Assembly: GCA_964593725.1 (NCBI GenBank)
Contig: CAZQJS010000007.1
Location: 20,828-84,827 of the forward strand
Reading direction: 5' to 3'
Source of the DNA: an uncultured Desulfobacterales bacterium
GTDB taxonomy: Bacteria; Desulfobacterota; Desulfobacteria; Desulfobacterales; Desulfobacteraceae
DNA length: 64,000 nt
In this document: positions 12,012 through 13,613 of the stretch, in pieces
How positions within the stretch are numbered: position 1 is the stretch's first letter
How the letters are laid out: every line of letters begins with the position of its first letter
The notes under the pieces: model-generated
Seen by the model: only the letters and a program-made list of their open reading frames with translations
The model's database searches: none
Told to the model about the DNA's origin: nothing
Made by a program: the position numbers and the translations under genes

Positions 12012-13613
12012 ATGATCACAATACTTGATTATGGAGCAGGAAATGTAAGAAGTGTTATTAATGCAGTTGAAGCCCTTGGGCATAAAGTCCGGCTTGCAGA
12101 TAAGGCTTCAGATATTTTAAATGCCGAAAAAATCATTTTTCCAGGCGTGGGTCACTATGGAAGCATGATAAAAACACTGAAACAAAAAAATTTTTTTACA
12201 CCCCTAAAAACTTATCTGGAGGAGGATCGCCCTTTTCTTGGCATTTGTCTTGGGTTTCAATCCCTTTTCCAGGGAAGCGAAGAATTTGACTTTCATGCCG
12301 GTTTTAACATTCTTCCAGGAAGTGTCTGCCGTTTTAACATCAAACTTGCAGTGCCCCATATTGGATGGAACAGTATAAATATCAAAAAAGAGTCCTTTTT
12401 ATTTCAAAATATAGATGAAAAGACTCGATTTTATTTTGTACATTCATACCATGTCCAGGCAGACAGACAATCTGATATTCTTACAACAACACCCTATGAA
12501 ATTGAATTTATCAGTGCTGTCAGCCATGGCAATATCATTGGTGTCCAGTTTCACCCTGAAAAAAGCGGAAAACCTGGTCTTCAGTTTTTAAGCAATTTCA
12601 TTTCCATGGAAAATAACATTAATGTGAAAAACATTGACTCCTGTTTCACTTTGTCAAGCAGGCGCGGCCTTGCTAAAAGAATTGTTGCCTGCCTTGATGT
12701 AAGGTCCAACGACCAGGGAGACCTTGTTGTTACCAAGGGTGACCAATATGATGTAAGGGAAAAGGGTGATGTCAGAAACCTTGGTAAACCTGTAAAACTT
12801 GCAAGGGATTATTATAATCAGGGAGCTGATGAGATAACCTTTCTCAATATAACCGGGTTCAGGGATTTTCCCTTAAAAGATATGCCCATGATAGATGTTT
12901 TAAGGGCAACCTCAAAAAATGTCTTTGTTCCTTTGACCATTGGCGGAGGAATCAGGGATTATACTGACAGCAATAACAGATCATACCAGGCCATTGAGGT
13001 GGCCGAAGCCTATTTCAGGGCTGGTGCCGATAAAATATCCATTGGAAGTGATGCTGTTCACATTGCCCTTGAATATATCAAAACCAGTGAGTTAACAGGA
13101 AAAAGCTCCATTGAGCAGATCTCAAAAATATATGGAAACCAGGCTGTTGTAATCTCCATTGACCCTGTGAAGGTGTGGGTTGATTCCATGAATTTAAAAA
13201 AGATATCGTCAAACCATACTATTATTTCATCTTCTGAAACCGGACCCGGTGGTGAAAAACACTGCTGGTATCAATGCACTGTCAGGGGAGGACGTGAAAA
13301 AAAAGATATTGATGTGGTCAGTTTTGCTAAAATTTGTGAAAAACTTGGTGCAGGTGAACTGCTCATTAATTCAATTGACAGGGATGGAACAAATCTTGGA
13401 TTTGATCTTGATTTGATAAATTGTATAAAAAACAGTGTTTCAATTCCGGTCATAGCATCCAGCGGGGCTGGCAGTGAAGAACATTTTTATAAGGTTTTTA
13501 CAGAAACAAAGAGTGAAGCAGCCCTTGCTGCAGGAATTTTTCACAGAAAGGAGATACCCATTAAAAGGGTAAAAGATTACCTTGCTGCCCGGCAGATTAC
13601 CATTAGAATATGA
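12012..13613 (+). CDS. hisHF: Bifunctional imidazole glycerol phosphate synthase: fused HisH glutaminase and HisF cyclase, eukaryotic HIS7-type
   Basis: 533 aa. The N-terminus has the class-I amidotransferase triad context (GICLGFQ, HSY, FHPEK). The C-terminal HisF barrel has long insertions ([35 protein letters not shown]... [15 protein letters not shown]) that I recall from fungal His7, not from bacterial HisF. Confidence 0.85.
   Translation: [533 protein letters not shown]

Follow-up and report, generated by a model that had tools for sequence, protein, structure and literature searches.

The stretch of DNA analysed here, called the window below, comprises 64,000 nucleotides of contig CAZQJS010000007.1 from an uncultured Desulfobacterales bacterium of the Desulfobacteraceae. 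At positions 12012..13613 of its forward strand lies an open reading frame (ORF) of 533 amino acids with an ATG start, identified by ORF calling and by Pfam and NCBIfam matches as hisHF, the coding sequence of a HIS7-type bifunctional imidazole glycerol phosphate synthase (IGPS). An earlier reading of the sequence alone had described this ORF as a single fused HisHF of the kind found in eukaryotes; its extent was exact, and both domains are confirmed by the two family databases. Pfam recognises a class-I glutamine amidotransferase domain (GATase) at residues 4-196 and a His_biosynth barrel at residues 223-515. The NCBIfam equivalog models for both subunits pass their cutoffs: hisH (TIGR01855, residues 2-199) with 209 bits against 105.4, and hisF (TIGR00735, residues 219-532) with 311 bits against 294.55.

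The protein is organised as a HisH glutaminase domain (residues 1-200, 12012..12611, +, delimited by TIGR01855), an inter-domain linker between the two family matches (residues 201-218, 12612..12665, +) and a HisF cyclase (beta/alpha)8 barrel (residues 219-533, 12666..13610, +, TIGR00735). The glutaminase triad is conserved as C79 (12246-12248), H181 (12552-12554) and E183 (12558-12560), corresponding to C83, H193 and E195 of yeast His7 and to C77, H178 and E180 of the E. coli enzyme. The cyclase aspartates D229 (12696-12698) and D384 (13161-13163) match yeast D245 and D404, and the ammonia-gate residues R223, E274, K341 and E449 match yeast R239, E293, K360 and E465. Each of the yeast catalytic and gate positions was verified against the 1jvn sequence.

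Homology and these conserved residues indicate that the ORF encodes a working HIS7-type IGPS for histidine biosynthesis. By homology, glutamine would be hydrolysed at the Cys-His-Glu triad of the HisH domain, and the C-terminal HisF barrel, gated at its centre, would channel the ammonia to the cyclase site at its far face. There, the two aspartates would support conversion of N'-[(5'-phosphoribulosyl)formimino]-5-aminoimidazole-4-carboxamide ribonucleotide (PRFAR) to imidazole glycerol phosphate (IGP) and 5-aminoimidazole-4-carboxamide ribonucleotide (AICAR), as in yeast His7. It is very improbable that the protein is instead a HisH2/HisF2 paralogue pair of the WbuZ/AglZ type acting in glycan amidation. 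The WbuZ and AglZ/HisF2 models do give partial matches to the query, but these cover part of the barrel only and stay far below cutoff (TIGR03572, 159.6 against 299.7; NF038364, 111.5 against 310), unlike the hisF and hisH equivalog models. Moreover, the PRFAR-cyclase residues are all conserved as in yeast His7, and no glycan-synthesis genes occur among the neighbours of hisHF.

Among solved structures, the only full-length match obtained with phmmer is yeast His7 (1jvn, 1ox4-1ox6), with 542 bits and E=1e-161, residues 2-532 of the query aligning with residues 7-551 of the yeast chain. Identity between the two is 50.1% over 525 aligned residues. With stand-alone HisF proteins the match breaks into two stretches that flank the largest insertion described below, with E values of about 1e-36 to 1e-46. 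An AlphaFold model built from a 36-sequence alignment has a mean predicted local distance difference test (pLDDT) score of 88.3 and a predicted template modelling score of 0.90. It is uncertain solely in the linker (residues 207-216, pLDDT below 50) and in the extended active-site loop (residues 243-254), where low confidence fits the expectation for a mobile loop. The top Foldseek matches of the model are again the yeast His7 structures 1ox4, 1ox5, 1ox6 and 1jvn, over the whole chain, with template modelling scores of 0.88-0.89 and E values near 1e-64; split HisF structures cover the barrel only.

The feature that sets the protein apart from ordinary bacterial enzymes is a series of insertions in the HisF barrel, about 58 residues in all, which the query has in common with eukaryotic His7. 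Every His7-type sequence has residues in these alignment columns, and at least 90% of the 24 insertion-free HisF sequences have none. They form seven blocks, the last two of which are only three residues apart, so that six units are listed. The first two, residues 235-239 and 247-251 (12714..12764, +), lie in the beta1-alpha1 active-site loop, and the others, all assigned from the same alignment columns, at residues 287-289 (12870..12878, +), 320-330 (12969..13001, +), 353-364 (13068..13103, +) and 393-417 (13188..13262, +). The last of these is the largest and runs into the HCWYQC strand, and its yeast counterpart also matches. In the loop-1 insertion region, 20 of 22 residues are identical between the query and yeast His7, and a 13-residue segment of the query aligns residue for residue with yeast His7 (YCWYQCTIKGGRE). 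Both segments quoted in the sequence-only reading as HIS7 insertions are present in the translation and align with the yeast protein in this way.

In domain-wise alignments, the insertion blocks occur in the query's own clade and in fungal (yeast, Mixia), red-algal, green-algal and other eukaryotic His7 proteins. E. coli HisF lacks them, as do the short HisH-HisF fusions, the reversed HisF-HisH fusions and the 24 insertion-free comparators as a whole. The length of the HisF part follows the same division: 309-363 residues in the query (315) and all His7-like proteins, against 251-266 in the other fusion types, as in E. coli.

These other fusion types were retrieved in a profile-free search of 1.84 billion representative proteins. 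They comprise short HisH-HisF proteins of about 455-485 residues (for example P0158, 470 residues), reversed HisF-HisH proteins (P0189, 520 residues) and proteins of 700-930 residues with the order HisH-X-HisF (P0161, 707 residues), and they are independent fusion events. They resemble the query in that both IGPS domains are carried on one polypeptide, and they differ from it in lacking the His7-type insertions, in being only 33-41% identical to it and in falling outside the His7-type clade. Some of the HisH-X-HisF architectures (P0161; P0192, 933 residues; P0220, 784 residues) have around 250 extra inter-domain residues, possibly HisA, and P0201 (505 residues), a fusion of the insertion-free type, has an unrelated barrel insertion of its own of about 35 residues.

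That fusions do arise independently in prokaryotes gives some ground for supposing that native bacterial hisH and hisF were joined and that similar insertions followed, whether by chance or under common selection. Such convergence is effectively refuted. The independent fusions have none of the insertions and show low identity to the query, whereas the query and the eukaryotic proteins agree in both the position and the sequence of theirs. Furthermore, His7-type sequences are monophyletic in 100% of neighbour-joining (NJ) bootstrap replicates, with concatenated domains and with HisF only, and in 52-76% with HisH alone. The HisF-barrel phylogeny proposed in the sequence-only reading thus places the query with eukaryotic His7. 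Placement within ordinary, insertion-free bacterial fusions would have spoken against that reading; real examples of such fusions were included, and the query fell outside them. Its assignment to the eukaryotic type is borne out by the end-to-end match to yeast His7, the shared insertions and the 100% monophyly, and its suggestion of a fusion shared with eukaryotes or of horizontal transfer is supported by the last two. The enzyme is almost certainly a HIS7-type IGPS whose fusion and barrel insertions share a single origin with those of eukaryotic HIS7.

The genetic setting of hisHF is not that of the canonical split hisH/hisF genes in a his operon, for which the E. coli order hisBHAF served as comparison: the gene is a single ORF outside any his operon and has no adjoining his genes. 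A tblastn search of the window with eight E. coli His proteins revealed no hisH, hisF or hisA apart from the fused gene. Besides hisHF and hisD, the remaining matches of these proteins correspond to a GmhB-like phosphatase of the haloacid dehalogenase (HAD) type and to a generic aminotransferase. Histidinol dehydrogenase (hisD, 5918..7246, -; TIGR00069, 526 bits, and tblastn with E. coli HisD) forms its own transcription unit on the opposite strand, 4.8 kb upstream, in agreement with the earlier estimate of about 5 kb. Likewise, no further hisH, hisF or hisA was found within 10 kb of the fused gene in 17 related loci. A second 533-residue ORF in the window (62223..63824) was considered as a possible duplicate of hisHF and rejected, since it encodes the unrelated protein RtcR.

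The sequence-only reading had hisHF standing alone, which holds with regard to a his operon and needs qualifying in view of the gene immediately upstream. This gene (11586..11987, +) encodes an acyl-CoA thioesterase of the YbgC/4HBT type (TIGR00051, 75.8 bits against a cutoff of 68.7) and shares its strand with hisHF, ending 24 nucleotides before the start of that gene; the gap contains no terminator-like site. The pair is kept in nine related loci (L001-L006, L009, L011 and L012), and hisHF is therefore probably the second of two genes in one unit. The upstream thioesterase is conserved in loci of the Desulfobacteraceae type, down to about 55% identity of the thioesterase itself, and is absent from those of the Desulfobulbales type and of Desulfohalobiaceae. 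No functional tie between the thioesterase and histidine synthesis is evident. A promoter-like site 5' of the thioesterase gene (11525..11554, +) has 9 of 12 hexamer matches, a consensus resemblance that carries no evidence of function. On the downstream side the unit is bounded by a cobalamin riboswitch (13644..13846, +; RF00174, 104.7 bits), which lies outside it and opens the btuCDF/cbi cluster, and which is followed by a terminator-like hairpin (13895..13919).

As the window probably derives from a metagenome-assembled genome (MAG), a eukaryotic gene of algal or fungal origin might have been mis-binned or mis-assembled into a bacterial contig. This possibility is refuted by several lines of evidence. 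The gene has no introns and is flanked by bacterial genes on both sides; bacterial neighbours in the window include polA, hisD, the B12 riboswitch and dnaN/gyrB. The GC content, the GC content at third codon positions (GC3) and the synonymous codon usage of hisHF match those of neighbouring genes. The identical protein is encoded on a contig of 101,763 bp and on a 4.8-kb contig from the Sequence Read Archive (SRA), an independent assembly in which hisHF has the same thioesterase and btuC flanks. Because of this native composition and of the independent assembly with the same flanks, hisHF is a resident bacterial gene and not contamination. In addition, synteny is kept in many MAGs, the best match being a Desulfobacteraceae MAG with 80% identity and the same gene order from hisD to cbiL, a match that makes an uncultured member of this family the most likely source of the window; homologues also occur in the complete genomes of the cultured Desulfobacula toluolica and Thermodesulfatator indicus.

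The gene is far from isolated. Its closest 120 relatives, from Desulfobacterales/Desulfobacteraceae MAGs, Desulfobacula toluolica and Thermodesulfatator, are all fused, have 522-541 residues and are 62-80% identical to the query; public records label them simply 'HisF'. A scan of GTDB contigs with a single protein query, which reached close relatives only, gave 17 loci, all in MAGs of the Desulfobacterota type, and added Desulfohalobiaceae and other delta-type members. A second search, seeded with the most divergent of these, added Desulfobulbales (Desulfurivibrionaceae, Desulfobulbaceae and Thiovibrio) and, at about 73% identity, MAGs of Archaeoglobaceae/Halobacteriota. A third added Thiorhodococcus fuscus, Ca. 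Kentrum and Desulfurivibrio dismutans. The HisHF clade now consists of thousands of sequences, mainly from Desulfobacterota (Thermodesulfobacteriota), with hosts that include Desulfobacterales, Desulfobulbales, Desulfohalobiaceae, Thermodesulfatator, Archaeoglobaceae and some Gammaproteobacteria of the Chromatiales type. The archaeal and gammaproteobacterial members fall inside or beside the Desulfobacterota sequences at about 60-73% identity, a placement that indicates later lateral spread among sulfur-cycling prokaryotes.

Yeast His7, the founding bifunctional IGP synthase, has the same domain order, insertions, triad, aspartates and gate residues. The query is more compact, with shorter HisH loops and a shorter linker, and after the DVREK motif of loop 1 yeast His7 has 3 more residues where the query has none extra. 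It also differs from yeast His7 in its setting, a prokaryotic genome in which a thioesterase gene precedes it. The canonical HisH:HisF heterodimer of E. coli and Thermotoga maritima (1gpw, 1ka9) performs the same reaction and agrees with the query in both folds and in its catalytic and gate residues, but is encoded by two genes, usually in a his operon; its HisF has about 250 residues without the insertions and is about 31-34% identical to the query. In outgroup-free trees, the nearest eukaryotic group, with 50-74% support, is that of the chloroplast HISN4-type HisHF proteins of green algae and plants, represented in the sample by green algae (for example P0469 from Mantoniella). Green-algal HisHF and the prokaryotic clade have in common the motif NITG[FY]RD.PL, whereas most other sampled eukaryotes have NITS. 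Unlike the query, the HISN4-type eukaryotic proteins have N-terminal extensions resembling transit peptides and the 3 extra loop-1 residues.

Eukaryote-type HisHF has been known in delta-proteobacteria since 2007, and the window gene is a confirmation and a further member of the same kind. Fani et al. described three fused HisHF sequences from two delta-proteobacteria, with insertions otherwise found only in HIS7 (PMC1963479). In their tree the delta-proteobacterial HisHF clusters with plants, and a transfer from plants to delta-proteobacteria was proposed (PMC1963479). A survey of 2024 reported that two Archaeoglobales also have a fused HisHF, with about 70% identity to the sulfate-reducer proteins (PMC11237513). 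Beyond the papers of the Fani group and this one survey of archaeal fusions, no newer literature on the direction of HIS7 transfer was found.

The direction of transfer was addressed with bootstrapped NJ trees, computed with our own NumPy implementation from Kimura, Poisson-gamma and maximum-likelihood (ML) distances, the last with a Gonnet-derived rate matrix. The eukaryotes sampled included the named Mixia osmundae, Gracilariopsis, Rhodosorus, Pyropia and Mantoniella, together with long representatives (P0124, P0121 and P0131) shown to be eukaryotic by their contig neighbours, among them ubiquilin, WD40, ankyrin, hnRNP-Q, Toc75-like, SUMO ligase and Brix proteins. The prokaryotic clade is shallow, with a minimum of 59% and a median of 68% identity; eukaryotes are deep, with a minimum of 40% and a median of 48%. 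When rooted with the outgroup, the trees place the prokaryotes within the eukaryotes in 84-96% of replicates with Kimura distances and in 79-90% with ML distances, either without gamma correction or with a shape parameter alpha of 1. Reciprocal monophyly of prokaryotes and eukaryotes never exceeds 8%. In outgroup-free trees (518 columns, insertions included), the prokaryotes form a clan in 86-96% of replicates. A split uniting prokaryotes and green algae against all other eukaryotes is recovered in 73-74% when ML distances are used, whatever the alpha, and in 50-73% with simpler distances; prokaryotes group with red algae in at most 1%.

The whole of the evidence makes it probable, judging from sequence comparison, that the window gene is a HIS7-type IGPS with a shared origin with eukaryotic HIS7, and that it reached prokaryotes from a eukaryote before spreading among them. 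A eukaryote close to the green lineage would have passed the gene once, across domains, to an anaerobic sulfur-cycling prokaryote; spread among such prokaryotes and long residence would have come afterwards, the composition of hisHF in this genome being by now fully adapted. The component concerning direction is held with less assurance: the trees lean towards eukaryote to prokaryote. This result matches the published 2007 tree with far more data, its support being moderate and model-sensitive. Several observations weigh against it. The trees are distance-based and represent one gene, with about 460-520 columns and land plants not included. With alpha set at 0.6, nesting of prokaryotes within eukaryotes falls to 22-65%, whether distances are Poisson-gamma or ML and whether long-branch eukaryotes are kept or not; when these are removed it stands at 22-46%, and the reverse nesting at 17-25%. 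For every eukaryote the distance to the prokaryotic clade is smaller than that to the median other eukaryote, and the prokaryotic branch is therefore short; a slow prokaryotic lineage near the root would give the same distance pattern. The pattern also creates a real risk that fast eukaryotes are drawn to the outgroup by long-branch attraction. The gene is found in several Desulfobacterota orders and, if vertically inherited, could predate crown eukaryotes. The evidence that hisHF is the sole IGPS covers 64 kb of the genome. Regarding the gamma correction, a composite pairwise likelihood prefers an alpha of about 4 and a parsimony moment estimate gives 2.2, both being crude and biased upward; they suggest that the true alpha is at least 1 and that 0.6 is probably too strong a correction.

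In the opposite history, an ancestor of the Desulfobacterota would have evolved the fusion together with its insertions and passed it to a stem eukaryote before the last eukaryotic common ancestor, the bacterial gene being of the donor type for all eukaryotic HIS7. This is unlikely, although it would accord with the distance pattern just described and with the shortest branches in the tree being prokaryotic (37.9% identity to the outgroup, equal to the closest eukaryote), with the reverse nesting obtained under strong rate correction once long branches are removed, and with the presence of the gene in several orders of one old phylum. The literature also still allows it, a 2021 paper from the school of Fani et al. 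retaining the possibility that a pre-formed bifunctional gene passed to eukaryotes from an unidentified prokaryote (PMC8305728). Against it, the prokaryotic clan is recovered in 79-97% of replicates under realistic models, so that the root rarely falls inside it. Reverse rooting, combined with the 73-74% split that unites prokaryotes and green algae, would oblige green algae to branch off first among eukaryotes. The archaeal and gammaproteobacterial members within or beside the clade point to recent lateral spread rather than to deep vertical descent, and divergence within the prokaryotes is shallow overall. That a sulfate-reducing ancestor of the Desulfobacterota donated its fused HisHF to a stem eukaryote, so that all eukaryotic HIS7 genes descend from a donor of delta-proteobacterial type and the window gene represents its slowly evolving lineage, is likewise unlikely. 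Polarising prokaryotes and eukaryotes by an indel in a HisH loop was tried and rejected as prone to homoplasy, the loop length varying within red algae; the loop is 2 residues shorter in sequences of the Desulfobacterales type and outgroups than in those of the Desulfobulbales type and most eukaryotes. Indels inside the insertions are unpolarisable because the outgroup has no insertions.

The gene is a clean, textbook-grade example of a core enzyme of amino-acid biosynthesis passing from one domain of life to another. The fused gene has apparently displaced the two-subunit enzyme across a guild of anaerobic sulfur-cycling bacteria and archaea. What is new relative to earlier work is the scale, with thousands of sequences from several Desulfobacterota orders, Archaeoglobaceae and hosts of the Chromatiales type, and the finding that modern sampling gives only moderate support to the direction proposed in 2007, when three bacterial sequences were at hand. 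Were the direction reversed, HIS7 would mark what a Desulfobacterota-like lineage contributed to early eukaryotes and would provide a gene-level trace of a sulfate-reducing partner in eukaryogenesis, as syntrophy-type models propose. The compact bacterial HisHF could also serve as a tractable model of the eukaryotic enzyme, which belongs to a class of herbicide and antifungal targets.

One of the related loci (L016, from a MAG of the Desulfobulbales type) contains at 12848..13084, about 1.3 kb 3' of an intact hisHF, an ORF of 78 residues that copies the C-terminal end of HisF (IASSGTGKVEHF...STAGAEVR) and appears to be the remnant of a partial duplication.

Other parts of the window contain genes of histidine utilisation as well as of biosynthesis: a urocanase gene (35636..37675, -) and, adjoining it, an amidohydrolase gene, probably for imidazolonepropionase (34375..35646, -). 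Upstream of the thioesterase-hisHF pair, an ORF of 365 residues (9791..10888, -) lies between genes for a histidine kinase and a metallophosphoesterase. It has a weak C-terminal match to a regulator of the AsnC/LysM type (NF040947, E=7.8e-07, far below cutoff), and the syntenic MAG L001 has a counterpart with 74% conservation.

The region opened by the cobalamin riboswitch (13644..30790) carries, 3' of it, btuC, btuD, btuF, cbiL, cbiET, cbiF, cbiG, cbiH, cobO and cobQ, with cbiD, cbiA and cbiC further on and on the opposite strand. Together these form an island for anaerobic B12 uptake and synthesis. A 357-residue ORF without family match (17730..18803) is located between cbiL and cbiET.

The region 50500..56900 looks like a replication origin. 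A very AT-rich stretch, with a GC content of 0.263 in 52001-54000, precedes the genes dnaN (53386..54507) and gyrB (54497..56899), and the cumulative GC skew has its minimum near 50 kb. No dnaA was found directly upstream of dnaN, and the AT-rich stretch before dnaN carries two ORFs without family match (51970..52584 and 52605..53135).

Finally, a tRNA-like element (61894..61957, -) matches the Rfam tRNA model with 52.8 bits over positions 5-66 of 71, so that it lacks the upper end of the acceptor stem, and ARAGORN makes no call. The element lies between rtcR (62223..63824, +) and a divergent SPFH-rtcA-rtcB operon (58214..61600, -), and we take it to resemble the tRNA-like modules of bacterial Y-RNA-like RNAs in Rtc/Rsr loci.

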